Counted from the stretch's first letter, positions 1,690 through 45,812 are shown. The stretch is DNA of 64,000 nucleotides from Candidatus Heimdallarchaeota archaeon (GCA_030603365.1 JAUVXV010000006.1:96001-160000); one strand, 5' to 3'. Made by a program: numbers and translations. Notes: generated from the sequence alone by a model not told the origin.

Positions 1690-1718
1690 ATGGTAATAAA
1701 TGTTTGAAATTATACTAT
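1690..1718 (+). promoter_or_regulatory. ATGGT-N19-ACCAT family site upstream of 1791-2402
   Basis: ATGGT-N19-ACTAT; TTTAAG at 1739. Confidence 0.5.
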
Positions 1719-1790
1719 TTTCTTTCAACTAAAGAAAATTTAAGAATGCTTTCTGTAGCTTTTGATTAAATTATTAATAATAAAGTATCA

Positions 1791-2402
1791 TTGAAGGTTG
1801 AAATTATGGATTTAATGCAATTGTTTAAAGGATTTATAAGAAATTATTCTACTTTAATGTTTCATAGAGAAGACAGAACATTGAAGAAATTCACAGAAAG
1901 AGAGCTAGGTTTTTTTGCAAAAGCTGGAGAAATGATGGGATATTACACTTTTCAAGAAGAAAAAGTAGAAATAAAAGGTAAAAAAAGACATGCTGATTTG
2001 GTATGGACCACATATAATCATGAGATAGAAGAATACTCTTTTCTGCTTCATTTGGAGCATGAAAATGATTTATCAGTAAAAGAAACTTTGGAACAAAAAC
2101 TATCAAATAGTCCTAATCTCATAGCAATTAACTGGTCTAAACCTGAAGATTATCCAACAAATATTTTATCAGCAAAAGATAAATTCAAAGAATCAGAAGA
2201 TATTAAAAGAATACTTCTCATTTTACAAACTAAGCTTAGTGAAGTGTTTCTATTGCATGCCATTGAGTTTACAAGAAAAAAGAGAGACATAGAACTCAGA
2301 GAATGTGATGCTCTAATAAAACAAGATGAAGCTGGTTTCTTCTATGGATTATTAAAAACAGAGATAGATACTTCTCAATGGGAAGAATTGATTTCTTTGT
2401 AG
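1791..2402 (+). CDS. PD-(D/E)xK restriction-endonuclease-fold protein
   Basis: E...HADLVW...LHLEHEND motif arrangement. Confidence 0.55.
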   Translation: MKVEIMDLMQLFKGFIRNYSTLMFHREDRTLKKFTERELGFFAKAGEMMGYYTFQEEKVEIKGKKRHADLVWTTYNHEIEEYSFLLHLEHENDLSVKETLEQKLSNSPNLIAINWSKPEDYPTNILSAKDKFKESEDIKRILLILQTKLSEVFLLHAIEFTRKKRDIELRECDALIKQDEAGFFYGLLKTEIDTSQWEELISL

Positions 2403-2403
2403 G

Positions 2404-2726
2404 TTATGGATAAGATCTCAAGTTTTTATATAGCATCCATAAATCTTTTTCTGGCTCATAGTCACTCATTTTCCCGAATAAAGAATATTTTCTGTTGATA
2501 ACATTCCTAGATGTATCAGACATCTTTTGAACGTGAAAACTGTTGAATGAGTTATTGTTTCTCTTAAAACTCTCACTTCTTCACAGATACTCTTTTCGTC
2601 CACCTTCTGATACATTCTCAATACTTCTTCTTTCTTATTCTTTTGACAGAAGAGATTTATGAACAGATTTGGTTTATCTTTACTATTTCTTCTACTAACT
2701 CCTTAAAACTCATCTCTTTCCTTTCC
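2404..2726 (-). pseudogene. Degenerate copy of the 3' end of 6684-7844
   Basis: DNA closely matches 6740-6985 and 4285-4555 with indels; own tail YEPEKDLWMLYKNLRSYP*. Confidence 0.8.
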
Positions 2727-3067
2727 AATAGGATTCCTTTTTTAGGAGGTTGTATTCTTCTAACTTTGAATAAAATGTACCTGAATAAACCATTTTCTTT
2801 CCTGAAATCATTAATATCCTAATCCTATCTATGAATCTAATGATTTTTTCCTTGGTTCCTATGTGATGCTTAATCCTCTTGGTCGTTTCTTTAAGAACTC
2901 TAATGGTTTCATTGAAACAGTCGATCTATTCTAGAAGTAGACCCTTTAGAAGCTCTAGAAGAAGTTGATTGGGGTAGAGAAAAATGCCTAAGTAGAGGAG
3001 GGATTTATGATTGGTAAAAGAAATTGAGTTCTTAGTTCTTTTAGATTAATTTCTTGTTCCTAGTTTT

Positions 3068-3466
3068 CTAACTCAAGAGTATTTTTGTTATTATTTTATA
3101 AATAAATTGGATAGTTCGATATGGGAAATTACTATAAGTTTTATTTTCGAAATTATCTCCTGTTACTTCTTTAGAAATTTTTACACCAAAGGTTGTTACT
3201 TCCCATAATACTTTGTGTACTTCCATTTCCAATTGCTGGATATCTTGAAAATATTCATTAATCCTCTCCTGTAAAGATGGAGCTTTGAAGGAAACTCCAA
3301 TGATTATAGGAGTTTGTTGCAGATGAGGTATTCTCTTTTGTAAGAAGCTGTTCCATCTGTACTTAAAGAAATCAAGTCTTTCAAAACACAATTCTGAATT
3401 TCTTATTTCTTTCAATTCTCTTCTGAATATCATTATCATATTTATTATCTTTTTTTTATTGTTCAT
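3068..3466 (-). CDS. Hypothetical protein
   Basis: 132-aa ORF, no motif recognised. Confidence 0.4.
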   Translation of the reverse strand: MNNKKKIINMIMIFRRELKEIRNSELCFERLDFFKYRWNSFLQKRIPHLQQTPIIIGVSFKAPSLQERINEYFQDIQQLEMEVHKVLWEVTTFGVKISKEVTGDNFENKTYSNFPYRTIQFIYKIITKILLS

Positions 3467-3611
3467 GTGTTCTCAGTAAACTTATAGATAAAAAAGCATA
3501 TAAGGAAATGAATCTTTTTGAATTTCTTAATTAGACATCAAGAAAAGGTCAAAAATGGCAAACTAGAATATCATAAATGTTGAAATATAACTATGTGTGT
3601 AGTTAGAATGG

Positions 3612-4013
3612 GTGTTAAGATTGCCAAGGATAAAGAAAGAAAAGCAAAAAAGAATTATTAATAGTTTTAGAAGATATCTTAAAGGTTATGTGAATTTGGA
3701 TTTTACTCATATAAATGAAGAAATTTCTAAAATAAAACTTAAGTTACATATACCTGGATCGAAAATGATTCTTTGCTTAAGATGTGGAGAGATTGGTACT
3801 GATAAACAGATGTTATTAAAACTCGCAAATAATCATTTCCATCTTTGTAAAGAAAGAGACACAATAATTAATGTTCCATGTTCTATATATGTAAGAACTT
3901 CATTTTTAAGGATTGAAAAAGTTTTAACAAACAAAATTAAGTCAGACGAATATCATTTATTAAAACATGAAAATTTGGATGATGATACTGAAATCTGCGT
4001 ATCACATGAATAA
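3612..4013 (+). CDS. Hypothetical protein with putative Zn-binding motif
   Basis: CLRC...HFHLC...C. Confidence 0.45.
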   Translation: MLRLPRIKKEKQKRIINSFRRYLKGYVNLDFTHINEEISKIKLKLHIPGSKMILCLRCGEIGTDKQMLLKLANNHFHLCKERDTIINVPCSIYVRTSFLRIEKVLTNKIKSDEYHLLKHENLDDDTEICVSHE

Positions 4014-4243
4014 ATAGTTGTGTGAAAAAGAATGAAAATCAAGGAATCATTCAAATAGTTACAAACTAGAAGCGGTGTACAGCTTGATTTTTTTTAGTGA
4101 ATAAATCCATAACTAAGCTTTTGATTTTTTATCATTAACCTCCTTTGAGAAAATTAACTAAGTTTGTATTATTTCTATAACCATTCTTTCTAACTAATTT
4201 TTCGTGTTTGTCATCATTTCTAAAACAACAATTTCTGTTTTGA

Positions 4244-4715
4244 TTACAATGAAGTTTCTAGAAACCATAAATCCTCTTCTAGATCATAGTCACTCATTTT
4301 TCCTGAATGTAGAATATTTTTTGTTGATAATATTCCTAGATGTATCAGATGTTTCTTAAATGTAAAAACTGTTGAATGAGTTATTTTTTCTCTTAAAACT
4401 CTCTCTTCCTCATAGATACTCTTTTCTTCACCCTTTTGATACATTCTCAATACTTCTTCTTTCTTGTTCTTTTGACAGAAAAGATTTATGAACAGATTTG
4501 GTTTATTCTTTACTATTTCTTCTACTAACTCCTTAAAACTCATCTCTTTCCTTTTCTGCTTTTCAAACACTTTCAGTAATTCCATAAACAGCTCATTTTT
4601 GTTATACAATAATTTCAACGTTATAGCTATCTCTGGATACTCTGTCATCAGTGATACTCCCTTCTTTCTACTCATTTCTTTCTTTATCGCTTCCAATTCC
4701 TCTAAACTATCTAAT
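4244..4715 (-). pseudogene. 5'-truncated copy of the C-terminal part of 6684-7844
   Basis: Translation near-identical to residues ~235-386 of the 386-aa protein; nuclease domain absent; different terminal residues. Confidence 0.85.
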
Positions 4716-4840
4716 CCTCTAACTGTAAAGTATTCCTTATAATCTAATATGATATACCCTATAGAATTTGATAGAATCATTGAGTATGTTTAGAAAAATT
4801 AATAATGAGTTTTTAATATATATATTGTAGGTTATTAGAA

Positions 4841-5743
4841 ATGTTTACCAAGAAACAGGTTGATATTGTTAGAAGATTGGAGAATTTTTCGCAGATCTAT
4901 GCTCACTATGCTCTTGAAGGTGAAAAACCAAAAAAAGAGCAATTTGAAGAAGATAATAACTATTTAGCTTTGCTTTTATTTATTAAATATGCTTATGAAA
5001 GGAATATTGATCTTACAAATTATAGAACTTGTGCCTTGGATACATTAGAACAATATAGGAAGAAAATTAACTGGACAAAATCTCTCTATCATAAAGCTGT
5101 GGAAGATATCTGGAAAACTTACCAAGAGATTGCAAAGAAAAAGTATGAAGGATTGAAAGTTAATGAAAAAAATAATCCAATGAATTCTAAAGAAGGGGTA
5201 CTAAATCGTCTCTCAGAAGAATCTATCATAAATTTAACAAAATATGCAAGAAAAAAATTAATTGAACAAAATACTCAAGAAATATATGATTTCATCTGTA
5301 GTATAAGAGGTGTTAAATATAAAATTGCTTCTTTCTATTTACGGGATCTAGCATTTTTCCTTGAAATAGATGAAAATCAAATCAAAGATCTTTACCTCTT
5401 GCAACCTATTGATATATGGTTAGAGAGGGTAGGTAAAATACTTTTTAAGGAATGGAAACCAATTTCATATTCAAAAAAAGTAATTGTTGAAAAACAAAAA
5501 AAAATACTTACTCTTTGTAAACAAGCTGAGGTTTCATCTATTTCTTTCAATCAGGGCACTTGGGAATTTGGAGCAAGAATAGCCAAATCTGAAAGGAAAT
5601 TCGAAAAAGCTCTCAATAATGAAGATTATATGGAAGATCTAGTCAAATATCGAAAGGATGAACTAAGGGACGAAATAACAAGATATGAAGAATGGATGAA
5701 AGATAATGAGAATTATTTAAATTTACTTCAAAAACGAAATTGA
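4841..5743 (+). CDS. HhH-GPD superfamily DNA glycosylase-like protein
   Basis: HhH motif ICSIRGVKYKIASFYLRD followed by QPIDIW (catalytic Asp position). Confidence 0.6.
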   Translation: MFTKKQVDIVRRLENFSQIYAHYALEGEKPKKEQFEEDNNYLALLLFIKYAYERNIDLTNYRTCALDTLEQYRKKINWTKSLYHKAVEDIWKTYQEIAKKKYEGLKVNEKNNPMNSKEGVLNRLSEESIINLTKYARKKLIEQNTQEIYDFICSIRGVKYKIASFYLRDLAFFLEIDENQIKDLYLLQPIDIWLERVGKILFKEWKPISYSKKVIVEKQKKILTLCKQAEVSSISFNQGTWEFGARIAKSERKFEKALNNEDYMEDLVKYRKDELRDEITRYEEWMKDNENYLNLLQKRN

Positions 5744-5807
5744 TTACAAATATCTATGAAACAATATGAAGAAAGTGAATGAGCTCTTCAATGTACCGAT
5801 AAATAAT

Positions 5808-6060
5808 TATCTTACAGTTAATTCTGGATTTTCTTCTGTTTTTCCCTGATTTTTCCAATAGTTTAAGCTCTGGATTGGAATGACATAGTTTATACAGATA
5901 TATTCAACCAATTTTTATAAACGAGAAAATTCATACCACAATAAACACATTCTAAGCCATACTACCTAAAAACAGGTATGCCATAATCTTTTCTTGAAGA
6001 ACCTTTGTAGATAATTTCACCTTATAGTCTTTTTCCTTCATATTTATCAAATGGATTCAT
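5808..6060 (-). pseudogene. Decayed HNH-nuclease-like gene
   Basis: MNPFDKYEGKRL*GEIIYKGSSRKDYGIPVFR*YGLECVYCGMNFLVYKNWLNISV then shifted YVIP; resembles the CxxC...W..LSVDHVIP HNH N-terminus; internal stops. Confidence 0.45.
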
Positions 6061-7891: not shown

Positions 7892-7920
7892 ATGGTAATT
7901 TCTTTCATGAAAATTACAAT
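7892..7920 (-). promoter_or_regulatory. ATGGT-N19-ACCAT family site upstream of 6684-7844
   Basis: ATGGT-N19-ACAAT on +; TTTATA on - at 7870-7865. Confidence 0.6.
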
Positions 7921-15103: not shown

Positions 15104-15140
15104 TAGGTAAGAATTTAGCAAAATAATACCATTCACAGAC
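15104..15140 (+). promoter_or_regulatory. ATGGT-N19-ACCAT family site upstream of the NYN RNase
   Basis: TAGGT-N19-ACCAT with aligned downstream AGAC; T-run/TTATTA at ~15154. Confidence 0.55.
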
Positions 15141-16711: not shown

Positions 16712-16813
16712 GACAAAGTAATTGTTATTAAATTATAAAAAGCTTTAGAATTCCATTGCAGTTATACTGAAAACACATACAACAAAACCAAGTTTTTTAG
16801 ATGCAACAAGATT

Positions 16814-19061: not shown

Positions 19062-19090
19062 ATTGTAAAAAATATCTATAAAATTACCTT
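19062..19090 (-). promoter_or_regulatory. ATGGT-N19-ACCAT family site upstream of rnhA/HEPN/NTase genes
   Basis: AAGGT-N19-ACAAT on -; CTTTAATT on - from 19040. Confidence 0.5.
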
Positions 19091-29655: not shown

Positions 29656-29684
29656 ATGGTATTTTTTTAAATAATTATAACCAT
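29656..29684 (-). promoter_or_regulatory. Perfect ATGGT-N19-ACCAT site upstream of the DptFGH-like operon
   Basis: atggtatttttttaaataattataaccat; CTTATTAA on - from ~29634. Confidence 0.65.
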
Positions 29685-30556: not shown

Positions 30557-30618
30557 AACAATCAGCTTTGATCATCTATTATCCTAAGAATTTTAAAATG
30601 TAGCTTAAAATTATAAGT

Positions 30619-30647
30619 ATTGTAAAAACTGGAAAGAGAAATACCAT
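30619..30647 (-). promoter_or_regulatory. ATGGT-N19-ACCAT family site upstream of 29684-30556
   Basis: ATGGT-N19-ACAAT on -; TTTTAAAA at 30591-30598. Confidence 0.6.
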
Positions 30648-30711: not shown

Positions 30712-32181
30712 TCATAATCCTCTTAATCTTGCATGGATGTAGTCATCTTTTTCATTGACTGAATAAAGAAATTCAGCTCTACCTTTTTCTGTTTGTTTTA
30801 TATTTACTAAATTTTTCCTATTTAGATCTGCAAGTGGTTTTGGAGGTTTTCTCTTCAGTTCATTTTCAGTAATTAAATTCTGATTTATTCTTTTTTGTAT
30901 CAGCCATTTTTTAATTTCAATTCGAATTCCGTATGCACTCATAGAACCTAAAGGTTTTGGAGTTTGTAGCTTTAAACCAGATATTCCTTTATTAACAACA
31001 TCTTCTTTATATTTATCAAGAAGAAAATCAAGAATAACCTTTTCTTTTTGAGTTAAAATTGGTTCAGTAATTTGGTTTCTTTCTAAATCATAGTTCTTTC
31101 TTATTTTATTTATAATAGTATTTCCGCGTGACAGAAACATTACCTGTTCTCTTAGTTCCCAAGTTTTAATCTTACTAATGATTATCTCTTGTATCTTATC
31201 ACTGTATTTTTGATAGGCTAATATTTCTGCTGATTTCTTAAATAATACCCTTTGATAATGCTTTGGTAAAATTTTCAAATTTTCGAGAGATGAATAATAA
31301 ATGACATCGAACACAGCTAGTGAGTACTCAAAAAATTCGAACTTTTTTTCAATCGGTTTTTCATTAATTTCTTCCTTATTCAAAATGTCTATCGTTCTAT
31401 CTGCTAAAACACGTAACATGAAAATAAGATTAATAGCATGTTTTATCCTTTCAAGGAATAATTTACTGTAGTTCTTCTCACGAATTAATAGAATTTTATT
31501 AAAATCCAGAAAAACTATATTTACATCATTTATTTTGATTTTTTTCTTGTTTCTTAAATCAAAATTAAGTTTCTTTAGATTTTTAGAATTTACTTCAATC
31601 ATAGTATGAGTATTTGATTCCATAACATGAAACTTACTAAAATCAGTGAAAACAGCTGATAAAATATCCATTTTTTCTGAAGTTTTTTCTCTGTTGCAAA
31701 TTTTTGCGATTTTATCTAACTTTTCTTGTATCTTTTTTGTTTCAGTATTTACTTCTAGTGATACTTTTTTTGTTATAGTTCCAATAAGAGAAGGAAAAAT
31801 CTCAACTCGTTTTCTAGGTTTCAATAATTCTAAGTCATTTTCATTAATAATCCATTTAATATAGTTAGAAACAAAAGCAATAAGTGGTCGAATTGGTTCT
31901 TTGTCACAAATATAACCTCTTGTATTTCTATAATAATTGTATGATTCAGTTGTTAACCCAATTTTGACTTTCCCCATCTTAGGAACGAAAAAATCGTGAT
32001 TTTTATCTTTATAATTATCTTCTTTTGTTTTGTTTTTCTTTGCAAAATAAAGTTGTTCAAGTTTTTGGCAGAACTTTTCACTGGTTTTAAGAAACTCTAG
32101 AGGTTTTCTAACATTTTCTTCATAAATTATCTCTAATAATGGAACAAAAAAACTGAAAGTCAAATCAATTTTATTTTTCAT
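30712..32181 (-). CDS. Hypothetical protein with C-terminal winged helix
   Basis: LTQKEKVILDFL...LADLNRKNLV...GRAEFLYSV; 4-bp overlap with the regulator. Confidence 0.55.
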   Translation of the reverse strand: MKNKIDLTFSFFVPLLEIIYEENVRKPLEFLKTSEKFCQKLEQLYFAKKNKTKEDNYKDKNHDFFVPKMGKVKIGLTTESYNYYRNTRGYICDKEPIRPLIAFVSNYIKWIINENDLELLKPRKRVEIFPSLIGTITKKVSLEVNTETKKIQEKLDKIAKICNREKTSEKMDILSAVFTDFSKFHVMESNTHTMIEVNSKNLKKLNFDLRNKKKIKINDVNIVFLDFNKILLIREKNYSKLFLERIKHAINLIFMLRVLADRTIDILNKEEINEKPIEKKFEFFEYSLAVFDVIYYSSLENLKILPKHYQRVLFKKSAEILAYQKYSDKIQEIIISKIKTWELREQVMFLSRGNTIINKIRKNYDLERNQITEPILTQKEKVILDFLLDKYKEDVVNKGISGLKLQTPKPLGSMSAYGIRIEIKKWLIQKRINQNLITENELKRKPPKPLADLNRKNLVNIKQTEKGRAEFLYSVNEKDDYIHARLRGL

Positions 32182-33668
32182 TCTCTATCACCCAGAATAT
32201 CATTTGAGTTATATTTCCACTCTTGGAATACTGTTTCATATCTTTCTGTAGGTAACTTCCATCTTCTACTATACATCTGATTGATAACAAACATTTCCTT
32301 TACATCTTTTTTGAAAAACATATTAAACAGGCTCATACAATCAAATATCATTTCGGTTGGAATCCTTACAATAAAATGCAATCCTTGATCTGTCTCATTA
32401 ACATACTTTTGGCTATACAATTCTGGAAAAATTGACAACTGTTTATGAATTGTTAGCTGTTCTGAAGGATCTTTTGATAGAAACAGTACTAGATTTGATA
32501 AACCAAAAACATAGTTTGGATTGATTTTTGATCTGAAGTATTGATGTTTTTGTAAATTTTCAACTTGTTTTCGTGCTTCTTTCTCACTTATTCCAAAGTC
32601 ATTTTTTATGGCATTTATTGACATTTCGTTTTTCATCAGCATATGATTGAGAATTTCTATTCCTGTTTTATGCAGATTCAAGACATGTTCCTGATTTTCC
32701 TTAAATTCAGGAACAATAATTGGTAGATTCTTACTATCACTCAATTCTTCCCAGTCTAGAGCTGATGCAATCTTATAGTATGGTAAATCCCATTTTCCGT
32801 ATCTATAGTCATAATTGGCAAAATTGAACGACTTCAACCTGCTGTTCATTTCAAATTTGAATATATTGGAAGAAACAATTTCATTTCTCTCGTTAATAAT
32901 ATCACATAATTTCTGTAAATCATTCTTAACTTGATTATTATCGGGAGTTATATAATTGATCATCACTGATTGTGAATTAGAGTAACTAGTATAAATAGAA
33001 TGCAAAAATGAACTATCTGGTAGTTCCTTGAAGAAGTCAATCTTAGAGGATAAGGGAACATTATAGACAATACCATAAATAGCTAAATTCAGTACTGAAT
33101 AGTTCAGAGATAAACCTGTATAAATGAGCTGTCGTTCCCTTAATTTCCTTTTATATTTTGAGAGGTTTGATGAATCCATTTTTATCTTATCTAACAATTC
33201 ATTATTGCTCATTGTCTGTTCCTTAAGTATGACCTGAAAAACTTCAAATTCCTTTGTATTAAACTTGGGCATAATTTTGGAGCGATAATCAAAGAATATT
33301 TGTAGAAAAGTATTCCAGGATAGTGGGATTTTCTTCTTTTTGAAATAATCTAAAATATTAAAAAAGTGTTTTGATGATTCATCGGAACAACAAAAATTTA
33401 GATAAGAGAAAGGAACTATATAACTGAAATTCTCAAATTTAATTGTTTTTCGATTCTTTGACCAAAAACTGTACCATTCATCGAATTTCTGCTTCTTCTT
33501 TGTTAATTTAGTTCGAATATAGAAGCAAATTATATCCCATTCAGGTGAATCTAATCTAGCTTCATATTTAATAACTAATCTTTCAAAATCTTTGAAAAGA
33601 TCCTGCAGAATTTCTTCTGCTAGTTCCATTCTTTTCTTCTGTTCTGGATTCTGAATGAAAGTCATCAA
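32178..33668 (-). CDS. Multi-domain Lrp/AsnC-like transcriptional regulator (two wHTH plus ferredoxin-like units)
   Basis: FNTKEFEVFQVIL...MDSSNLSKYKRKL...LNYSVLNL; second HTH GIEILNH...FGISEKEARKQVENL...NPNYVFGL. Confidence 0.65.
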   Translation of the reverse strand: MMTFIQNPEQKKRMELAEEILQDLFKDFERLVIKYEARLDSPEWDIICFYIRTKLTKKKQKFDEWYSFWSKNRKTIKFENFSYIVPFSYLNFCCSDESSKHFFNILDYFKKKKIPLSWNTFLQIFFDYRSKIMPKFNTKEFEVFQVILKEQTMSNNELLDKIKMDSSNLSKYKRKLRERQLIYTGLSLNYSVLNLAIYGIVYNVPLSSKIDFFKELPDSSFLHSIYTSYSNSQSVMINYITPDNNQVKNDLQKLCDIINERNEIVSSNIFKFEMNSRLKSFNFANYDYRYGKWDLPYYKIASALDWEELSDSKNLPIIVPEFKENQEHVLNLHKTGIEILNHMLMKNEMSINAIKNDFGISEKEARKQVENLQKHQYFRSKINPNYVFGLSNLVLFLSKDPSEQLTIHKQLSIFPELYSQKYVNETDQGLHFIVRIPTEMIFDCMSLFNMFFKKDVKEMFVINQMYSRRWKLPTERYETVFQEWKYNSNDILGDRE

Positions 33669-33727: not shown

Positions 33728-33747
33728 ATCGGGTAAAATTACCCAAT
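33728..33747. promoter_or_regulatory. Palindrome GGGTAA-AA-TTACCC between the regulator and the peptide gene; candidate operator
   Basis: atcgggtaaaattacccaat. Confidence 0.45.
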
Positions 33748-33867: not shown

Positions 33868-33921
33868 ATGAAAGGACCAATAGAATTTCCACCAGACGAC
33901 CCAGAACCCTGGCCTCCATAA
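33868..33921 (+). CDS. Unannotated 17-aa peptide MKGPIEFPPDDPEPWPP
   Basis: AGGAGGTGA SD at 33851-33859, ATG at 33868, TAA at 33919-33921, followed by a hairpin. Confidence 0.6.
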   Translation: MKGPIEFPPDDPEPWPP

Positions 33922-34089: not shown

Positions 34090-34130
34090 ATGGTGAATTT
34101 TCCAATCTTTCCTACCATTTTGAGACTTTT
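34090..34130 (+). promoter_or_regulatory. Perfect ATGGT-N19-ACCAT site plus TGAGACTTTT
   Basis: TTTAAAA at ~34139. Confidence 0.7.
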
Positions 34131-34185
34131 TTTTTAGCTTTAAAAATACTTGAGTATATCTTTGTATTAGTTTGGATCTGATAAA

Positions 34186-34535: not shown

Positions 34536-34572
34536 ATGGTATTTTTCCTCCAAATCTTTACAAATTTGAGAC
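34536..34572 (+). promoter_or_regulatory. Motif site upstream of 34647
   Basis: ATGGT-N19-ACAAA, TGAGAC at +31, TTTAAA at 34585. Confidence 0.65.
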
Positions 34573-34646
34573 AAAAGAACCCCATTTAAAACAACTCATT
34601 AACATAATAATCTTGCTCAATTGTATTACTTGGAAAACGGATTAAG

Positions 34647-34994: not shown

Positions 34995-35035
34995 ATGGTA
35001 TTATTCTTTCTATTTTTTACAAGATTGAGACTTTT
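34995..35035 (+). promoter_or_regulatory. Motif site upstream of the 901-aa surface protein
   Basis: ATGGT-N19-ACAAG, TGAGACTTTT at +31. Confidence 0.65.
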
Positions 35036-35094
35036 TGACAATGATTTTTATTCTGGGGGCTAAATTCAATTAGTTTCTTAAATTAGAGAGGAAA

Positions 35095-37800: not shown

Positions 37801-37802
37801 TC

Positions 37803-38930
37803 ATGAAATCATTGAAATTCGCGTACATAATCTTAATTCTTCTATCTTTTGGTCTATTAGCTCAAACACCTATATTTGAATCCACATATGCTACAACATA
37901 TACTACAAATAAAATCTCTTCAGGTGGTTCAAGTTATACCTTATATTTAGATATAGACTCAACCACCTGGATTCGAGGTGAAGACAATTACTTCTACGTA
38001 GGTTTAATTGTGAATAGTTTTGGGTCTGGGATCTATGATTTTCACGAGATAAACCTATGGGCAATGTTTGACGATGGTGATGGATTCAACATAGTAGATG
38101 AATCAGAATGGGGGTCTATTGAGACTGAAGGTGGATATTATGAGAAAGGATGGTTCTATACTCCTAGTGGGTCTACTCCAGATAGCTTTTCTATTTACAT
38201 TGGGTCTGATTTCTGGGAAGATGTTGGCATAGGAGATCCTTATACAGCTGATGGATGGACTTGGATGGTCGACATAACAGTCATTGACACCGAACCTCCA
38301 GAGATTAATCAACCTAGTGACATTACTTTTGAAGAAGGAGAGACAGGACAACAACTTGCTTGGGTACCAACTAGCAATTCCCCAGATGATTACTATATCT
38401 TTCAAGATGGTCTTCTAGTCGAGTCAGGTTATTGGTTATCAGGATATCAAATTATATACCCAATTAGCTATCTACTGAAGGGAGATTATACATTTCTTAT
38501 TCATGTATATGATACATTTGACCAAATGATTTCTGATACGGTATTGGTTCATGTACAAGACACTACACCGCCAGTGATTAGCTCTCCAGTCGATATTGTC
38601 TTTGAAGAATCTATAACAGGACGAATTATAGAATGGACAGCTTCTGATGCTTATCCAGAAAGCTATGAATTAGAAAGAAATGGAGAGTTAATAGATTCAG
38701 GTTCATGGGAAGTAAATACTCAGCTCCATTTTTCATTAGATGGTCTAGAACCAGGAACTTATTCCTACTGCTTAACTGTATTCGATGATTCTGGTTTATC
38801 TTCTTCTGATTGTGTAGAAGTAGAAGTTGTAGGAACTGAAACAAGTGGTTATAATTCCATCATAACTACCATTCTATCAATAGTCACACTACTTTCAATA
38901 GCATCGATATTCAAAAGAAAATTCAGTTGA
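37803..38930 (+). CDS. Surface protein with two DTxPP Ig-like repeats
   Basis: DTEPPEINQPSDITFEEG / DTTPPVISSPVDIVFEES; signal peptide and C-terminal TM. Confidence 0.75.
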   Translation: MKSLKFAYIILILLSFGLLAQTPIFESTYATTYTTNKISSGGSSYTLYLDIDSTTWIRGEDNYFYVGLIVNSFGSGIYDFHEINLWAMFDDGDGFNIVDESEWGSIETEGGYYEKGWFYTPSGSTPDSFSIYIGSDFWEDVGIGDPYTADGWTWMVDITVIDTEPPEINQPSDITFEEGETGQQLAWVPTSNSPDDYYIFQDGLLVESGYWLSGYQIIYPISYLLKGDYTFLIHVYDTFDQMISDTVLVHVQDTTPPVISSPVDIVFEESITGRIIEWTASDAYPESYELERNGELIDSGSWEVNTQLHFSLDGLEPGTYSYCLTVFDDSGLSSSDCVEVEVVGTETSGYNSIITTILSIVTLLSIASIFKRKFS

Positions 38931-39024: not shown

Positions 39025-39065
39025 ATGGTATTTTTCTCTAGATTTTTTATAAAACATAGACTTTT
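39025..39065 (+). promoter_or_regulatory. Motif site upstream of 39131
   Basis: ATGGTATTTTTC...AGACTTTT aligned; right arm degenerate. Confidence 0.5.
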
Positions 39066-39130
39066 CAATAAGCATTTTTTATAGCATTGGTTTCTTTTCA
39101 TCTACTGATTTAATAGGTTAGAAGGATATA

Positions 39131-39697
39131 ATGAACCACACAGAAAATAAAGAACATAATGTAGCTCTAGAGAGGAAAAGATTAACCAGACTAATGGAAG
39201 AGCGTGCTACCATAGAAGAGATGATGAGAGAGAACGAAGATTATACTGCGCTAAGAGAAGAGTTAGCTGAAACTGATAATAGAAAGATTCTCAAGCCAAT
39301 TCGTGGAGGAAGCAGTAAAACAAACTATACTGCAGATGGCAGATCTTATTTTGACAATAAGAGACTGAGTTTAGATACAACTTATCTTGGTCCCAGATAT
39401 GATGTTAGTGAAATGTTAGATTCAGAAAAACTGGTTCTCAAGATGATGAAAGAGCTTGATGAGAGAAAGAAGCTGATGCAGACTCCTCTAGCAGAGGTTT
39501 ACAAAGAAATTATCAAAGAAGACGCTCCCCCCAACAAGTACTTTGCTATCAGAAAAATGGGAGAGTTTCTAGAAGAGGAAGAATTCACAGCAGAAGAAAT
39601 TGCTTTGATGAGGACACTGATGAAAAGGATAGTTAAGAAGCATAGGGGGTCAAGAGAAGAGTTACTATTGTCGCTGTATATAGAAGAAAAACTATAG
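39131..39697 (+). CDS. Hypothetical protein (copy 1)
   Basis: Near-identical paralog at 46269-46832. Confidence 0.75.
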   Translation: MNHTENKEHNVALERKRLTRLMEERATIEEMMRENEDYTALREELAETDNRKILKPIRGGSSKTNYTADGRSYFDNKRLSLDTTYLGPRYDVSEMLDSEKLVLKMMKELDERKKLMQTPLAEVYKEIIKEDAPPNKYFAIRKMGEFLEEEEFTAEEIALMRTLMKRIVKKHRGSREELLLSLYIEEKL

Positions 39698-40051: not shown

Positions 40052-40645
40052 TCATTTAAACCAGCTTTTTATTTGCTCGGGGTTAATTCCAGTGATTTGC
40101 ATTTCACCTTCAACAAATATTATTTCTGCATTTGGAACCTTAAGCAGATCTTGTTCAAAATATTTCTTAGTAAAGAAGATGTACTCTTGATTTGATGATC
40201 CTCTTAGCCCTTCAGGTTTATGAAATTTCTCAATATAGGGACCAACTATTATTAAATCTACTAGCTTCGACAATTTTTCTAATAGCAACATCTCTTCTAT
40301 TTCAGTTCTAGTATAACCTGTCCACATAACGACAGATAGCTGAGTCTTATCTTTGATACATTTCAGTAATTCTAGTAACTCTTCACTTTGATCTAAAGGT
40401 TCTCCCCCACTTATCGATATACCTTCTATTTCCTTCTCACTTTCCAAAATTATAGAGAGAAGTTCAGCTGGTTGCATTTTTTCACCTATACTGGCGTCGT
40501 GAGTCTCAGGATTACTACAACCAGGGCAATTCCTAGTGCACCCTTGAACCCATATTGCCAATCGTACTCCTGGGCCATTAGCTCTTGTTCGTTCAATTAT
40601 CTGATGAATACGCAGATTAATCCCTCTAGTTAGTTTCATCTGCAT
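40052..40645 (-). CDS. Radical SAM protein, NrdG/PFL-activase-like
   Basis: NGPGVR, WVQGCTRNCPGC, ISGGEP. Confidence 0.85.
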   Translation of the reverse strand: MQMKLTRGINLRIHQIIERTRANGPGVRLAIWVQGCTRNCPGCSNPETHDASIGEKMQPAELLSIILESEKEIEGISISGGEPLDQSEELLELLKCIKDKTQLSVVMWTGYTRTEIEEMLLLEKLSKLVDLIIVGPYIEKFHKPEGLRGSSNQEYIFFTKKYFEQDLLKVPNAEIIFVEGEMQITGINPEQIKSWFK

Positions 40646-41199
40646 ATTGGTATTTCTAGCAATCGTCTTTCTTGTAATCGTCTATTATTTGTTGCTGCTT
40701 CTGGTTTCATCTCTCTATGAATCACTTGTCCTATGTCTTCTTCAAAACTCTTTGTTGCATGCAGACAATTCTTTCCTCTGAAATTCTTTGTTTCTACATT
40801 CAGTCCATAAATTCCTTTAATTCTAAGTACTATTTGTTCAGGAATATATTGTCCATCCAGTCTAATATTTCTTTCAAAAATCAAGACCTCTTCTTGGGTA
40901 TTTCTCTTTTCTTCTTTGAGCTTGAATCCTTTTATACCAAAATCTTCTGTTGCTAGTAGTCTAGTATATGTTGGCAAAATTATTTCAACAACCTTTTCCA
41001 GTTCGTTCTTAAGAGACTCTTCCATTTTTAGTTTATCACCTTCTCTTTCAGATAAAATAGCATGAAGCTGATATTTGTCTCCCTCCTTGATTATAGTAAT
41101 TCCCGATAATAAATTGTGCATTTCTAAAGCTTCTTCTAAGCATTCTTTACTTGCAAATCCTTGTTCATGTGTAATTCTTATTCTTATCATTTGAGACAT
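40636..41199 (-). CDS. DUF1257/DUF2997-like fusion protein
   Basis: C-terminal VETKNFRGKNCLHATKSFEEDIG...MKPE. Confidence 0.55.
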   Translation of the reverse strand: MSQMIRIRITHEQGFASKECLEEALEMHNLLSGITIIKEGDKYQLHAILSEREGDKLKMEESLKNELEKVVEIILPTYTRLLATEDFGIKGFKLKEEKRNTQEEVLIFERNIRLDGQYIPEQIVLRIKGIYGLNVETKNFRGKNCLHATKSFEEDIGQVIHREMKPEAATNNRRLQERRLLEIPICR

Positions 41200-41338: not shown

Positions 41339-43708
41339 TTAGATCTTCTTTTGTTTCTTCTTCTTCAAAACTATTGGTACCAGTGCTATTGGTATTATGA
41401 GAATTGATATTATTCCTATCGTTTCCCCAAATTCTGGTACGTCTGGCGGATTTTCTAGCAGCATCAAGTATACTTCTGGTCTTCCTGCTACATCTCTAGT
41501 ATAGATATAAACATCAACACCTTCTCCATCTGGTATTGTGAATGTGAAATAGTAATCATCGTTCGAGATATGTGTTACCGATGGATAACTTATGCTTGTA
41601 TCTTCATAATGCACTTCAGGTGTTATATCCCAAATTGCCAGATTATCTCTAATAGTTGCATCTATCCTGTAGGTTTCTCCACTCACGTGTGATGGCCAAA
41701 TACCGATCATCGTTGGGTTCACTGCATCCACAATTGAAGTAGTTTTCAGCTCATCTTCCTTTAATATTACTGGGAATAATGGATCATTCAATACTGGGAA
41801 GGTTATTGGACTGAACAATCCAGTATCTCCTACCACCTCATAGTTGATATCTATACTTGGATCAGTTACCCAGGTGTCTATTTGTCCTTGCACAGTCAGG
41901 TTCATCTGTTTTATTCTGAAATAGAGGTTGTTGAATTGTAAAGTTGTATTAGTATTTGCGTCAATTAATGCTCCATCTGCTGCACCGCTAGAGACTGTAT
42001 CCCAAAGAATAACCTCTTCTCCACCATCAGCTATAGTATAACTTTCTGGACTTCCATCATCTACATCACCTGAAAACCAGATAGTATTGTTGACCTCAAG
42101 GTAAATTCCTACTTCAAATAGCACATCTATACCAGCAGTAATGTCTATACTGAAAAGATCCTCATCTTTAGTAAGATTACCAAGTGGGAAGTTGTAAGTA
42201 AATTCATACAAAGTCAGATCGCCAAATGGAGTGATGAAATTGTAGAAGTAGCTAATAGGGTCAAACAGCTGAAGCTTGTATCCATAGACTTCAACCTCTC
42301 CTATAACTTCAGTTCCAGCAAATCCTTCTTCAGGAGTGATAGTTACATCTGTATTGATACTATTTCCAGGGATAACATATCGTGGTGTCTTTTGCTCGAA
42401 GAGTAAAGGAACATACAATCCTGAGAACAAACCTATAGTGAAATTTACAAAACTTATTCCACCAGTCAAATCCTGATAATAGTATTCCTTTATTCCCAAA
42501 TTCTTCGTTATCTTGTTACAGATTGGTAAATCAGTTATCGTCTCAAACATATAGAGAGATCCACCGTTATCATCCACGTAGACTTCACCATCTACGTTAA
42601 GAGTCTCAATCAAGAAGTAATATGTGGAATTCTCAGTAAGACCTCCAATACTCGCACTGTGACTAGTTCTAAAACCTATCATGTTCAAAGTTTGATCCAA
42701 AGATCCTTGAGATGTTCCATAACGAACAGTAATCTGAGCATCTCTAGTAGTATCAAAATGGATTGTTGCTTCATCTCTCAAACCTATGATTCTATAATGA
42801 CCGGGAACAGCTGGATAAGTAACATCTATCCGCACTGTGAAAGTGACATCAGCGATAGGAATCACCATAGTGTAGCTGTTTGTTCTATTTGCTCTCCACC
42901 ATTCAGCATTAAAGACTGGATAGTTGTAGACTATTCCACCCAAAGCATCATCTGCATCGATATCTGCTTCTAGACAGTGTATATCAAAATAGAATTCGTC
43001 ATCTAGTAATACTCCTTTATAGAGTTCTAGATTGGCGTTTATCGTCTCTCCATCAGTTATATCTTTGTATTCATAGGTGCTTCTTCTGGTTTCATAAATC
43101 TGATAACTGAAGTAAATCTCTCCATCTCCTTTACCAGTTATCTCATGTTTGTCATGAATAACTGCACTAACCAAAGTAACAGTTATGTAGGCAGTTTCAT
43201 CAACTTCAGGAGGAAGGATGACATTATCTTCAGCTATCACTTCTAGATAGAAGGTAGCATCAGTACCTGTATGCTCAAACACTTCATAGTTACCGTAGGT
43301 GGCAACAAATGTAGCTAAATCAAGTGACAACATTGTGAAGTTAAAGTCTCCTATAAAATCGTCATCATCTAAATCATCGTAGTCCCAGCAGTCAATATAG
43401 ATGTAAAGATTGCTTGCATCTTCTATTAAACTGTCAAAGAGAACGAAATTGAACGTTACATTATTACCAGTGTCTGTTTCTATCTGTGCGGTTTCAAATT
43501 CTGAACCATTAACATCAAAATTGAAATAGAGCTCTCCTGCACCTAGTAATGCTCCGTCGTGGTCGTCAATAATATAGACATCTAAAAGAGTAATCTTAAC
43601 GTAACCTACAGCATTGGCTGCTTGAGCAGGTAGGAACGGAAAACTACTGACGAACAGAATAGATAATAATATAGTTGATAGTAATTTTTTATTCATTAAT
43701 TTTCTCAC
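41339..43708 (-). CDS. Surface protein with two C2-like domains, an FN3-like domain and a PEF(G)-type C-terminal sorting signal
   Basis: IDCWDYDDLDDDDFIG and IHCLEADIDADDALG; HSASIGGLTENSTYYF; VPEFG plus TM plus KKKKQKK. Confidence 0.7.
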   Translation of the reverse strand: MRKLMNKKLLSTILLSILFVSSFPFLPAQAANAVGYVKITLLDVYIIDDHDGALLGAGELYFNFDVNGSEFETAQIETDTGNNVTFNFVLFDSLIEDASNLYIYIDCWDYDDLDDDDFIGDFNFTMLSLDLATFVATYGNYEVFEHTGTDATFYLEVIAEDNVILPPEVDETAYITVTLVSAVIHDKHEITGKGDGEIYFSYQIYETRRSTYEYKDITDGETINANLELYKGVLLDDEFYFDIHCLEADIDADDALGGIVYNYPVFNAEWWRANRTNSYTMVIPIADVTFTVRIDVTYPAVPGHYRIIGLRDEATIHFDTTRDAQITVRYGTSQGSLDQTLNMIGFRTSHSASIGGLTENSTYYFLIETLNVDGEVYVDDNGGSLYMFETITDLPICNKITKNLGIKEYYYQDLTGGISFVNFTIGLFSGLYVPLLFEQKTPRYVIPGNSINTDVTITPEEGFAGTEVIGEVEVYGYKLQLFDPISYFYNFITPFGDLTLYEFTYNFPLGNLTKDEDLFSIDITAGIDVLFEVGIYLEVNNTIWFSGDVDDGSPESYTIADGGEEVILWDTVSSGAADGALIDANTNTTLQFNNLYFRIKQMNLTVQGQIDTWVTDPSIDINYEVVGDTGLFSPITFPVLNDPLFPVILKEDELKTTSIVDAVNPTMIGIWPSHVSGETYRIDATIRDNLAIWDITPEVHYEDTSISYPSVTHISNDDYYFTFTIPDGEGVDVYIYTRDVAGRPEVYLMLLENPPDVPEFGETIGIISILIIPIALVPIVLKKKKQKKI

Positions 43709-43770
43709 CCTAAATTAACTGCTTAAAAATAGAAATAAGAGGTATTTAAACTTGTGGTGAAAGTTTCTAA

Positions 43771-43799
43771 TTGGTAAAAATCAAGGTTATTTTTACATA
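43771..43799 (-). promoter_or_regulatory. Degenerate motif site upstream of 41339-43708
   Basis: TTGGT-N19-ACATA on +; TTTAAATA on - at 43750-43743. Confidence 0.45.
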
Positions 43800-43844
43800 A
43801 ATTTTCGAGAAAAAACTTAAATATTCAAATAAACTTAAACCGCT

Positions 43845-44111
43845 ATGCAATGCAATATGAAATGTCCTAAATGCCAAGAAATACATGAAGTCAACAGTAG
43901 ATACTGCATAAGTTGCGGTTTCGATCTTGAACCTTACATCATCAGATTCAAAGATAAGCACTTACCAATTCATTTTGATGGGGGTATAATTGATGCTATT
44001 GTTGGAGAAGAGGAAGAAGACACTTGTTGTGACTGTTGTGGATGTTGTTGTGGAGGAAGCAGTAAGAAAAAAGACCAAGGGTGCTGCATGAGTCTATTAG
44101 ATTGTCTATAA
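43845..44111 (+). CDS. Zinc-ribbon protein with cysteine-string tail
   Basis: CPKC...CISC; CCDCCGCCCGG...GCC...DCL. Confidence 0.65.
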   Translation: MQCNMKCPKCQEIHEVNSRYCISCGFDLEPYIIRFKDKHLPIHFDGGIIDAIVGEEEEDTCCDCCGCCCGGSSKKKDQGCCMSLLDCL

Positions 44112-44236
44112 TCCAATTATCTCTTACAAGAGAAAGATCATAATGGTTTCATATTTTCTCAAGAACTACACTACAACAGAATATGTTAAAACTATTCATT
44201 TTGCAAGGATAAATCAATAACAAAATAGTTAGAATG

Positions 44237-45734
44237 CTAGATTTCATTTCCTAAGATATCAGCTGAATCATATTTCCATTCTTGGAATACTGTTTCATAT
44301 CTCTCTGTTGGTAATAGCCATCTTCTACTATACATTTGATTGATAACAAACATCTCCTTTACTTCTTTTTGGAAATATTTATTGAACAAGCTCATACTAT
44401 CAAAAATCATCTCATTGGGAATTCTAATTATAAATTGTAATCCTTCCTCTTCTTCAGAGATGTATTTCTGACTATACAATTCTGGGAATACAGACAACTG
44501 TTTGTGCAATTGCATCTGTTCTGCAGGATCTCTTGAAAGAAAGAGTACTAGGTTTGATAATCCAAAAACATAGTTGGGATTAGTACGGGTTTTGAAATAG
44601 TTCAACTTACGAAAATTTTCTACTTGCTTTCTCGCTTCTTTTTCACTTATACCAAGATCGTTTTTTATTGCACTTATTGACAACTTATTTTTTAGAAGTA
44701 TATTATTGAGTATCTCAATCCCAGTCTTATGCAAGTTTAGAATTTTTTCCTTTACCTCATGAAACTCTGATAAGATGAAGGGGATTTTCTTATTATCTCT
44801 AGCTTTCGTTGAGGAGATAGCTGAGGATATTTTATAGAAGGGTAAATCCCATTTTCCTAAACGATAATCATAATAAGAGAAATTGAATGATTTTAACCGT
44901 GATAGCATGTCAAATTGATAAAAATTTGAAGAAATTAGAGTGTGTTTATCTTCTAAATCTTGTTTAAGTTTTCGCAAATCTTCTTTTACTTGAGGATTAT
45001 CAGGAGTCACATAATTTACCATTACCTATTGTGAGTTAGAATAACTTGTATAAATAGAATGTAGGAATGCACTCTCTGGCAATTCCTTAAAGAAATCTAG
45101 TTTGGAATCCAAAGCAACAGTAAATACCAGACCATAGATGGCTAAATTTAAAGCAGAGTAATTGAGAGAGTCCTTCAAAAATGAGAGTTCGTTCCAGTAA
45201 CCGTCTCTTATATTTTGAAAGATTGGATGGATCCATCGAGAGTTTTTCTAATAGTGTTTTGTTATCCATTGTCTGCTCTTTGAGGATTGTTTCAAAGACA
45301 AGAAATTCATTCTTATTGAATTTGGGCATAATCTTAGATCTATAGTCAAAAAATATCTGTAAGTAAATATCCCAAGAGAGTTTAAGATTAGCATTTGAAA
45401 AATATTCTAGAATATCTAGAAGATAGGAAGAAGATTCATCAGAACTATGAAGGTTATAGTAAGTAGAAGGAACTAGATAACTGAAATTCTCGAATATAAT
45501 GGATTTTCTATTAGTAGACCAAAAAATATTCTAGTCATCAAATTGTTTGTTAGTTCTAGCTAACTTTGTTCTAATATAAAAACAGATAATGTCCCATGCA
45601 GGAGTGTCTAACTTAGCTTCAAAGGTTACCACTAATTGCTCAAAATCAGAGTAGAGCTCTTGAAGAATTTTCTTAGCTAACTCCATTCTCTGCTTCTGCT
45701 CGGGATTCTTAGTGAAAGGCATCAGATTTAACAT
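44237..45734 (-). pseudogene. Pseudogenised paralog of regulator 32178-33668
   Basis: Three ORF fragments collinear with the 496-aa regulator, split by stops and frameshifts (~45531, ~45165, ~45026). Confidence 0.85.
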
Positions 45735-45771
45735 AGTTCTAACTTACATAATCTTTACCATATGACTGCAA

Positions 45772-45812
45772 ATGGTTTTTTTAGAAGTCATTATTACCAT
45801 TTTTAGACTTTT
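45772..45812 (+). promoter_or_regulatory. Perfect ATGGT-N19-ACCAT site plus TAGACTTTT
   Basis: TTTAAA at 45821. Confidence 0.7.

Follow-up and report, generated by a model that had tools for sequence, protein, structure and literature searches.

In a Heimdall (Asgard) archaeon, about ten genes that lie together in one genomic island, some of them for antiviral systems or secreted proteins, have a 60-base promoter element in common. It consists of (A/T)TGGTA-N17-TAC(C/A)AT, which is an imperfect inverted repeat, then as a rule a GAC box, and finally a TATA box. The sites in the window (the whole stretch of 64,000 nucleotides that was analysed) are best explained as copies of one composite archaeal promoter module, and we lean towards a joint reading in which a locus-encoded protein of 496 amino acids (aa) docks on this module and probably activates a local regulon. 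A preliminary description of this DNA had listed an ATGGT-N19-ACCAT palindrome at 12 promoters. All 12 sites are intergenic and read as described, and 6/12 carry an aligned AGAC. What was called a palindrome is indeed a promoter-linked, conserved element, but the simple palindrome was rejected in favour of an asymmetric pseudo-palindrome with a third box. The sites are listed below with their E-values from a covariance model and their ranks according to two position weight matrices (PWMs). The foreign PWM was trained on 15 sites from nine other genomes only and ranks 29 genome-wide hits scoring >8; the second is a 33-nt repeat-only PWM, with sites 29656, 19062, 1690 and 15104 outside its training.

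34090..34148, plus strand: strong site with perfect ATGGT/ACCAT arms, a TGAGAC box and a TATA box at 34139 (E = 3e-12; foreign PWM rank 1); the target is a 102-aa double Zn-ribbon gene (34186-34494).
34536..34594, plus strand: strong site with ATGGT..ACAAA, TGAGAC and a TATA box at 34585 (E = 4.7e-11; foreign PWM rank 3); the target is a 103-aa Zn-ribbon paralogue (34647-34958).
34995..35053, plus strand: strong site with a T-rich TATA-like box at about 35044 (E = 3e-9; foreign PWM rank 5); the targets encode a 901-aa signal-peptide protein and a 375-aa PKD-domain protein (35095-38930).
39025..39083, plus strand: strong site with ATGGT..ATAAA, ATAGAC and a TATA box at about 39074 (E = 6e-8; foreign PWM rank 4); the target is a 188-aa gene (39131-39697).
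45772..45830, plus strand: strong site with perfect arms, TTAGAC and a TATA box at 45820 (E = 6e-10; foreign PWM rank 2); the targets are a 108-aa Zn-ribbon gene and a 187-aa gene.
30589..30647, minus strand: strong site (site 30619) just 3' of the 489-aa partner gene and followed at 20 bp by a TATA box (E = 4e-8; foreign PWM rank 6); the target is a 290-aa gene (29684-30556).
29656..29684, minus strand: good repeat, a perfect palindrome without GAC box that abuts the stop codon of the 290-aa gene (untrained rank 5, 33-nt PWM; E = 2e-4); it lies 89 bp upstream of a DndF/SspF-like 639-aa gene heading an operon (19202-29566) with 594-aa, 1883-aa mad8/HerA-like and HNH genes.
19062..19090, minus strand: good repeat, AAGGT..ACAAT as read on the minus strand, without GAC box and with TTTAATTT 22 bp on (untrained rank 7, 33-nt PWM; E = 0.011); the targets are RNase H-like, 309-aa, CD-NTase-like and minimal NTase genes (16328-19033).
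1690..1718, no strand assigned: weaker site, ATGGT..ACTAT (rank 10, 33-nt PWM; rank 13, foreign PWM; E = 0.008), with a TATA-like TTTAAG 20 bp away on the plus side, toward a 203-aa gene (1791-2402).
15104..15132, no strand assigned: weaker site, TAGGT..ACCAT with an aligned ACAGAC (rank 12, 33-nt PWM; rank 15, foreign PWM; E = 0.0085-0.03), between an HNH 397-aa gene (minus) and a 152-aa gene (plus), with TATA-like boxes 18-20 bp off on both sides.
7892..7920, no strand assigned: marginal site whose arms are good (ATGGTA/TACAAT) and whose spacer is atypical (rank 20, foreign PWM; rank 22/24, 33-nt PWM; E = 0.29), between a 386-aa gene (minus) and a GIY-YIG-like gene (plus), with TATA-like boxes 20 bp off on both sides.
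43771..43799, minus strand: degenerate site reduced to its proximal arm TTTTTACCAA with a TATA box at +20 (foreign PWM rank 27); it faces a 789-aa secreted protein gene (41339-43708), not the 88-aa gene.

Sites 1690, 7892 and 15104 each have modest scores; a composite test of arms plus TATA arrangement was run on site 15104 and is passed by site 7892. The gene behind site 19062 likely starts at the ATG near 19009. The half-site form of 43771 recurs in the orthologous promoters of G009 and G013, and the position of site 30619 is also occupied by a site, in either orientation, in G009, G003, G030 and a 38%-identity clade. Site 45772 is a duplicated copy of the 34090 module, and part of the similarity between the two is due to this segmental duplication. 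Regarding the targets, the Zn-ribbon genes, secreted-protein genes and defence operons named in the preliminary description stand; the PD-(D/E)xK and NYN labels of some genes found no confirmation, and site 43771 faces the other way.

The geometry of the element is strict. T-tracts flank both arms of the inverted repeat, and the GGTA and TACC cores lie 21 bp apart from centre to centre, or about two helical turns. The GAC box usually sits 10 bp beyond the proximal core and the TATA box starts 20-21 bp past the proximal arm; placed from the TATA position, the three boxes upstream of it fall at roughly -75, -53 and -43 relative to the transcription start. In most of the 12 window sites, a TATA-like hexamer starts 19-22 bp past the proximal arm; measured from the distal edge this is about 50 bp, as first described. 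Among 54 sites from about 20 genomes the offset is +20 in 23 and +21 in 14, with few elsewhere. TTTAWA acts as a TATA box genome-wide, with a peak at about -30 from the ATG. Start codons lie about 74-118 bp from the sites, close to the earlier range of 75-120 bp, except at 7892 (187 bp from the annotated start). Like an upstream activating site, the element is located wholly upstream of BRE/TATA at a fixed phase (TATA start at +19 to +22). When 21 sites from 10 genomes are aligned, which takes no gaps, GGT, A28 and A39 are invariant and the spacers vary, conservation being confined to the GGT, AC, GAC and TATA columns. No conserved purine-rich BRE precedes the TATA boxes in this alignment, which suggests promoters that need help. 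The element is seen in either orientation at an unchanged TATA distance, which fits a two-armed binder.

By itself, the bare palindrome is weak evidence. Exact copies of ATGGT-N19-ACCAT occur in the window at 29656, 34090 and 45772, the three sites given as perfect, where shuffles lead one to expect 0.02; with at most one mismatch there are 8 matches (1.6 expected) and with at most two 46 (25 expected). Genome-wide, however, the ten bases are at background frequency, with 9 exact N19 copies compared to 1-11 for spacers of 5-35, and the 6 copies outside the window look unrelated. The genome-wide enrichment by which the motif was to be judged is thus absent for the bare palindrome, whereas the composite element tops the PWM rankings. 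With the foreign PWM, the window sites rank 1-6, 13, 15, 19, 20 and 27 in the 3.65-Mb genome, and ranks 1-6 are the six strong sites. With the 33-nt PWM, the genome-wide top 8 all lie in the window, as do 10 of the 12 hits scoring >=19, and the four untrained sites fall within the genome's top 12. The composite test yields 7 hits in the window for the real arrangement and 0-2 for control spacers or control TATA offsets. Over the whole 3.65-Mb genome, no convincing copy was found outside the window. In the 47-64 kb region, described earlier as free of sites, the covariance model run over the window without filters indeed gives no hit with E<1, but 13 of the 46 matches to the bare palindrome at <=2 mismatches lie there. 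The composite element is real and local to the island.

About 16 genomes of a single Heimdallarchaeia family have kept the element. When 83 genomes from across the class were scanned with the covariance model, no genome outside the window's own family gave a hit with E<=1.4e-4. As it adjoins the same double-Lrp regulator gene in about 15 related genomes, the element is probably the docking site of that regulator. Among the other 30 genomes of the family, 15 have both regulator and element and 10 have neither; in G010 the element lies at a contig edge beside a fragment of the partner gene, and four genomes with regulators at <=37% identity gave no covariance-model hit. Element and 496-aa orthologue share a contig in 13 genomes, G000 included. 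In the window the element precedes the DndF-like and RNase H/CD-NTase operons, and in relatives strong copies precede an OLD-family ATPase (G009, G003), a pAgo (G030) and a type III-A cas10-csm2-csm3 operon (G003), a placement expected of a defence operator.

The regulator gene and its surroundings are composed as follows.

32178..33668, minus strand: 496-aa candidate binder gene; in the protein, a helical domain at the N-terminus is followed by a tandem of two Lrp/AsnC-like HTH+RAM modules.
30712..32181, minus strand: 489-aa partner gene, translationally coupled to the regulator gene and matching no known family.
33731..33744, no strand assigned: short palindrome GGGTAAAATTACCC, between the regulator gene and a leader-peptide gene.
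44237..45725, minus strand: second, decayed copy of the regulator gene, interrupted by in-frame TAG stops.

In the AlphaFold model of the 496-aa protein (pLDDT 87, pTM 0.84), the modules occupy residues 138-281 and 334-467, each with the winged HTH followed by RAM (beta-alpha-beta-beta-alpha-beta) that defines the Lrp/AsnC (FFRP) fold. Foldseek relates this model to many Lrp/FFRP regulators, with a probability of 0.99-1.0 for PH0061, LrpC, FL11, AsnC and ST1022, and the PDB profile matches are LrpA and PH0140, HTH matches elsewhere being weak. The protein has no CARF or WYL domain, as the PADLOC matches to CasR, Csa3 and CARF3 span only residues 132-184 and 323-383 (the HTH parts), and no TPR domain is present in the model. 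A peptide-regulator pair of the RRNPP/arbitrium type was rejected on the latter ground and because the 17-aa leader peptide lacks a signal sequence for export. Both proteins encoded at 30712-33668 had been put forward as binders. The 496-aa gene is linked to the element by position and co-occurrence, but the 489-aa partner, which possibly has a C-terminal winged helix, is an unlikely binder, since it was not found in G013 or G016 and both keep the element. The GGTA/TACC half-sites of GGGTAAAATTACCC match the arms of the long element. This short palindrome is conserved in both regulator clades, and in G013 and G016 the long element occupies its position instead.

Taken together, we consider it somewhat probable that the element is the operator of the 496-aa regulator and defines a local regulon of defence and secreted-protein genes. 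The inverted repeat would then be the docking site of a locus-encoded factor, most likely this tandem Lrp/AsnC-like protein, whose two HTH domains differ from each other, as do the arms of the site that they would fit, and whose RAM domains may sense a small ligand. The factor would activate, probably by aiding TBP/TFB binding; the activator role proposed from the outset is suggested by the position of the site, wholly upstream of BRE/TATA. Predicted members are the genes for Zn-ribbon and large secreted proteins, those of 188 aa and 290 aa, and the defence operons on the flanks (Dnd/Dpt-like, RNase H/CD-NTase). An ordinary Lrp dimer covers 13-16 bp; this suits the GGGTAAAATTACCC palindrome better than the 29-bp element, whose binding would take two molecules or an unusual geometry. 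A classical 13-17-bp, one-dimer A/T-rich palindrome was rejected as the operator because the element is 29 bp long and its arm cores lie 21 bp apart.

Several observations point away from the 496-aa protein as binder. Its best Foldseek match is an enzyme with the same tandem Lrp-like fold, the siroheme decarboxylase NirDL. The recognition helix of HTH1 is invariant even in distant homologues from genomes without a covariance-model hit. The co-occurrence of Zn-ribbon genes with the element is about as good as that of the regulator, and the related genomes are kin, so co-occurrence counts overstate independence. As to the best explanation as a whole, the RNase H promoter site at 19062 is not clearly conserved, its orthologue in G002 being only motif-like and that in G015 lacking the element.

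The same element and binder could also exert negative control, with costly defence and envelope genes kept silent by oligomers along T-rich DNA or by looping and released on ligand binding. Lrp-family proteins repress as well as activate and form higher oligomers, the defence-system regulators BrxR, CapW and Csa3b act as repressors, and the G013 element lies about 40 bp from the regulator's own start codon. Yet archaeal repressors usually overlap TATA/BRE or the start site, whereas all boxes here are upstream of BRE/TATA at a fixed phase, and the lack of a conserved purine-rich BRE likewise argues against silencing; we regard this reading as rather unlikely. Less likely still is another binder for the same element, which would be an operator autoregulating the ~100-aa double Zn-ribbon proteins, or one of the 489-aa partner or another factor, with the tandem Lrp binding only GGGTAAAATTACCC. 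The Zn-ribbon gene is the most constant target of the element, and the sole one in the 38%-identity clade, and GGGTAAAATTACCC has the size of a classical Lrp site and is kept in both regulator clades. However, where Zn-ribbon paralogues lie at a distance from the regulator (on contig C6 of G000, and in G017, which yielded no regulator), they carry a different repeat and no element, the Zn-ribbon proteins match no DNA-binding family, and the genomes in which no partner was found have the element at the position of the short palindrome.

A mobile promoter cassette or recombination hot spot, in which the repeat marks insertion or exchange slots for foreign defence genes and the promoter role is secondary, appears improbable. 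Behind the site next to the partner gene, the cargo does differ from genome to genome (here the 290-aa gene and Dnd-like operon, in G009 and G003 the OLD ATPase, and in G030 a 550-aa gene), and the orientation of that site is also reversed between genomes; pAgo is present in 1/31 family genomes and the Dnd-like operon likewise in 1/31, both with the element, and one G009 copy abuts a tRNA-like fragment. The copies are nevertheless alike at specific positions only, the scan of island proteins revealed no integrase, transposase or recombinase, and no true copies were found on viral contigs; moreover, strict +20 TATA phasing and orthologous positions across genomes indicate selection for promoter function. 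A MITE-like or attC-like repeat was rejected, given that only the GGT, AC, GAC and TATA columns are conserved and the scanned island proteins include no recombinase family. Chance matches in AT-rich intergenic DNA, together with leftovers of one local duplication, are scarcely credible: the background frequency of the bare palindrome and the duplicated segment holding 34090 and 45772 would agree with them, but they are already contradicted by the foreign-trained ranking, the conservation in about 16 genomes and the control spacers and offsets.

Among known systems, the favoured docking of the 496-aa protein resembles Ptr2 of Methanocaldococcus jannaschii, an Lrp-family activator that recruits TBP via upstream activating sites. 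Both have a palindromic site for an Lrp-type factor wholly upstream of BRE/TATA and a (candidate) binder with the HTH+RAM fold. Unlike at Ptr2 sites, the 29-bp site here has its arms 21 bp apart and is joined by GAC as a third box; the candidate binder carries both Lrp modules on one chain, together with an additional N-terminal domain; the genes behind the site encode defence and secreted proteins, and activation is putative. Classical archaeal Lrp/FFRP operators (FL11/PH1519, LrpA, Ss-LrpB, BarR) share the A/T-rich inverted repeats, an autoregulated, divergently transcribed regulator gene and likely RAM ligand sensing, but span 13-17 bp, a size that only the 33731-33744 palindrome has here. 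As for Csa3a/Csa3b of Sulfolobales and bacterial BrxR/CapW, an HTH protein is encoded at the locus and a palindromic operator precedes neighbouring immune genes; in contrast, the 496-aa protein has neither their CARF nor their WYL domain, and a single element stands before several unrelated systems (Dnd-like, CD-NTase, OLD, pAgo, type III CRISPR) and also before genes outside defence. In Thermococcales, the TGM motif of TrmB/TrmBL1 is also a conserved inverted repeat that defines a regulon, and its position relative to TATA decides its effect; protein fold and motif differ, and here the TATA distance is fixed and the regulon confined to one island. The AimR operator of arbitrium phages has half-sites about 25 bp apart, and AimR shares with the present locus widely spaced half-sites for a large sensor-regulator and a tiny peptide gene beside the regulator gene, but not the TPR sensor domain, an export signal on the peptide (17 aa here) or the phage context.

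A broader, tentative and still doubtful view is that, among the archaea closest to eukaryotes, the element acts as a portable 'immune promoter'. Defences of unrelated kinds would, once newly acquired, be set behind one element, and a single ligand-sensing tandem-Lrp factor would switch them on together with envelope and secreted proteins. If true, this would cover Dnd/Dpt-like, CD-NTase, OLD, pAgo and type III CRISPR systems, and any unknown gene behind the element would be a candidate new defence gene.

The window is C16:96001-160000 of an assembly of 3.65 Mb (33% GC, 89% complete) in which TTTAWA hexamers peak 26-35 nt (around 30 nt) upstream of the ATG across 1693 long ORFs genome-wide. Predicted TATA-type promoters are therefore the norm in this Heimdall archaeon, and the short distance suggests many leaderless transcripts. 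The preliminary description had listed twelve ATGGT-N19-ACCAT palindromes in the window, all of which read as stated and lie between genes. Ten specified bases alone are poor evidence. The window has three exact palindromes where 0.02 would be expected, and eight where 1.6 would be if one mismatch is allowed. With two mismatches, 46 matches stand against 25 expected and 13 of the 46 fall in the housekeeping part; a tolerance of up to two mismatches was dropped as too noisy. Genome-wide, nine exact copies at spacer 19 compare with 1-11 at other spacers, i.e., no enrichment, and the six exact copies outside the window have neither a T-rich spacer nor a downstream box. Genome-wide, the bare palindrome does not rise above background, while a longer element, of which it is part, does, as its window sites top the genome ranking.

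A gap-free alignment of about 60 nt can be made of the five plus-strand sites at 34-46 kb, and 15 more sites from nine other genomes fit into it as well (alignment A2). The consensus starts distally with (A/T)TGGT(A/T), followed by two T-tracts with about seven free bases between them, continues with AC(C/A)AT and TTTn(A/C)GAC (the GAC box), and ends proximally with a T or A run, six free bases and TTTAAA. No substitution is seen in GGT, in the A of the proximal arm or in that of GAC, while the spacers between the conserved boxes vary freely, and we therefore read the pattern as a footprint, not as recent copying. The arms are unequal: the distal G never varies, and its counterpart on the other side is split about evenly between C and A.

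A 62-nt matrix trained on 15 foreign sites only yields 29 matches above the score cut-off of 8 in the whole genome, ranks 1-6 being the six strong window sites; sites 1690, 15104, 19062, 7892 and 43771 (named after their window start positions) rank 13, 15, 19, 20 and 27. For a 33-nt matrix covering the repeat only, the genome top eight are eight window sites, including two that were not in the training set, 29656 (rank 5) and 19062 (rank 7), and at scores of 19 or more, 10 of the 12 genome matches fall inside the window, which represents 1.75% of the genome. When relaxed arms, spacer 19 and a TATA box at +19 to +21 are combined in a loose composite pattern, the genome has 20 matches, seven of them in the window, versus 8-16 and 0-2 for control spacers or offsets. 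Finally, a filter-free window scan with R1, a covariance model of the element, places all six strong sites at E ≤ 6e-8, followed by 29656 (2e-4) and by 1690, 15104 and 19062 (about 0.01). Nothing with E < 1 appears beyond 46 kb, in agreement with the earlier claim that the 47-64 kb region is free of sites. The grades below are based on the matrix ranks, the composite pattern and the R1 scores.

Element sites in the window, by grade
30619, 34090, 34536, 34995, 39025, 45772: strong sites (n = 6)
29656, 19062: good repeats without GAC box (n = 2)
1690, 15104: weaker sites (n = 2)
7892: marginal site (n = 1)
43771: conserved half-site promoter, facing the 789-aa gene

The fixed distance to the TATA box was borne out as well. 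Sites were selected with a repeat-only matrix blind to the TATA region, some loci having been retrieved with a model that includes TATA columns. Of the 54 from the window and some 20 genomes, 23 have a TATA-like hexamer starting at +20 and 14 have one at +21, with few at other offsets. The rule is independent of which arm faces the gene: in G009 and G003, the site 3' of the partner gene has the opposite orientation to that in the window, and its TATA box still lies 20-21 bp past the proximal arm.

Conservation of the element was compared with that of two neighbouring genes.

32178-33668, minus strand: regulator gene (496 aa)
30712-32181, minus strand: partner gene (489 aa)

Of the family's 30 other genomes, 19 have a homologue of the 496-aa gene and 16 an R1 match with an E value near 1e-4 or lower; among the 83 genomes scanned, no other family of the class has a match at that level. 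Both are present in 15 of the 30 genomes and neither in 10, counts that are descriptive and carry no statistical test because the genomes are kin. In 13 genomes, including the window's own, the element sits on the regulator's contig; in G010, it lies at a contig edge beside a partner-gene fragment. Four genomes with a regulator of at most 37% identity have no R1 match. In one of them, G002, AAGGT-N19-ACCAT with a TATA box at +20 was nevertheless found by hand. The module is minimal in the regulator clade of 38-42% identity: besides the regulator and its partner, it has a single site, a 200-nt leader and a Zn-ribbon gene. A conserved leader of about 200 nt between the site and the Zn-ribbon gene (loci L047/L048/L046 of G026, G028 and G010) holds a GTCAC..GTGAC hairpin and a GGGAGGGAG stretch, and could be either a short ORF or a regulatory RNA. 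A metagenome scan added four loci, three from the G030 lineage and one with a more distant regulator homologue. None of 16 single IMG/VR matches to a 17-base pattern scores as a true site, and an Rfam scan of 28-47 kb gave no matches. Taken together, this is a genuine, hitherto undescribed promoter element of one Heimdallarchaeia family; a literature search found no prior description.

The preliminary description proposed the wHTH proteins of this locus as binders, which is probable for the 496-aa protein and unlikely for its partner. The AlphaFold model of the former is confident (pLDDT 87, pTM 0.84): after a helical N-terminal domain come two HTH-plus-RAM modules. Its Foldseek matches are NirDL, a fused Lrp-like enzyme, and numerous Lrp/AsnC regulators, and a profile search retrieves LrpA and PH0140. 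Two unlike HTH domains in one modelled chain would suit a site with two unlike arms, and together with the linkage this makes the tandem Lrp-like factor the probable reader of the element. For the 489-aa partner, searches gave neither a family nor a PDB sequence match, and no clear fold match; it was not found in G013 and G016, which keep the element. Most genomes keep a short palindrome, GGGTAAAATTACCC (window 33731-33744), between the regulator gene and a peptide gene. Since the long N19 element takes its position in G013 and G016, where the partner was not found, the sequences hint that the partner reads this short palindrome. Zn-ribbon paralogues away from the regulator are preceded not by the element but by a different repeat, a direct repeat of GTTGCAA-type words (G000 contig C6, about 19000-19270; L045 on G017:C93, a genome in which no regulator was found).

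Relative to the expected start, the boxes are near -75, -53 and -43, 5' of BRE/TATA, and no conserved BRE was seen before the TATA boxes of the aligned sites. By analogy with known archaeal activators, the factor would activate by recruiting TBP/TFB, gated by a ligand of its RAM domains. The same factor could instead repress from the same element, which we regard as doubtful, though not far-fetched. That another protein binds the element is unlikely. A role in cargo exchange, as part of a mobile cassette or in recombination, seems very improbable. The 32.2-34.5 kb segment has a decayed copy at 44.2-46.8 kb, with a regulator pseudogene (44237-45725, in-frame TAG stops), a site, a Zn-ribbon gene and a 187-aa gene, of which the adjoining promoter and the Zn-ribbon gene are intact. 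This duplication accounts for one site pair (34090 and 45772) and no more. No tRNA genes were found at the island borders.

A second, one-mismatch palindrome (45733-45761, R1 score near noise) lies 10 bp 5' of the 45772 site, at the pseudogene start. In L094 (G009:C134, about 4126-4158), a good copy of the inverted repeat with a GAC box and without a TATA box continues into a tRNA fragment (GGTTCGAACCCC-like) near an LmuB-like ATPase gene; it may be the scar of an integration event. The 17-aa ORF at 33868-33921 has a strong ribosome-binding site (GGAGGTGA) and a Pro/Asp/Trp-rich core (DP.PWPP-like), and is followed 3' by a conserved hairpin-forming RNA, structured to about 34060. All orthologous loci examined, from either regulator clade, keep both, and the Pro-rich string is reminiscent of ribosome-stalling leaders. 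A radical SAM/4Fe-4S gene (197 aa) and a DUF2997 gene (187 aa) lie inside the module at 40052-41199, with the same placement in G031.

Window targets include three double Zn-ribbon genes, genes for signal-peptide proteins of 901, 375 and 789 aa, the 188/187-aa genes, a 290-aa gene, a DndF/SspF-like operon with mad8/HerA-like and HNH genes, and an RNase H-like/CD-NTase-like operon; genes beside an HNH nuclease and a GIY-YIG-like nuclease are less sure. The proposed mix of defence and surface targets is retained for the Dnd-like, CD-NTase-like, Zn-ribbon and secreted genes, but not the labels of the 203-aa, 152-aa and 290-aa proteins, for which no family was found. Elsewhere, strong copies precede an OLD-family ATPase gene (G009, G003), further secreted-protein genes and the following systems.

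Defence genes behind strong element copies in relatives
L080 (G030:C94), 3486-5929: PAZ-Piwi Argonaute, 782 aa; strong copy 5'; in 1/31 family genomes
L100 (G003:C82), 64-4151: type III-A cas10-csm2-csm3 operon behind a strong copy

At L100, a Cas3-like helicase gene lies 5' of cas10-csm2-csm3. The Dnd-like operon is likewise present in 1/31 genomes, and both it and the Argonaute therefore appear to be recently gained defence genes now behind the element. For the same single occurrence, orthologues of pAgo and the DndF-like gene with and without the element cannot be compared; RNase H orthologue promoters are only motif-like in G002 and lack the element in G015. The element marks a putative local regulon mixing defence and secreted-protein genes.

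To our knowledge, Asgard archaeal gene regulation is almost unexplored. Most described defence regulators in other prokaryotes control one system each; the targets found here suggest several unrelated antiviral systems under one control point. The cis element and its candidate factor form a concrete, directly testable pair. The element also serves as a search handle, by which downstream Heimdallarchaeia genes, many of unknown function, become candidate defence or surface genes.
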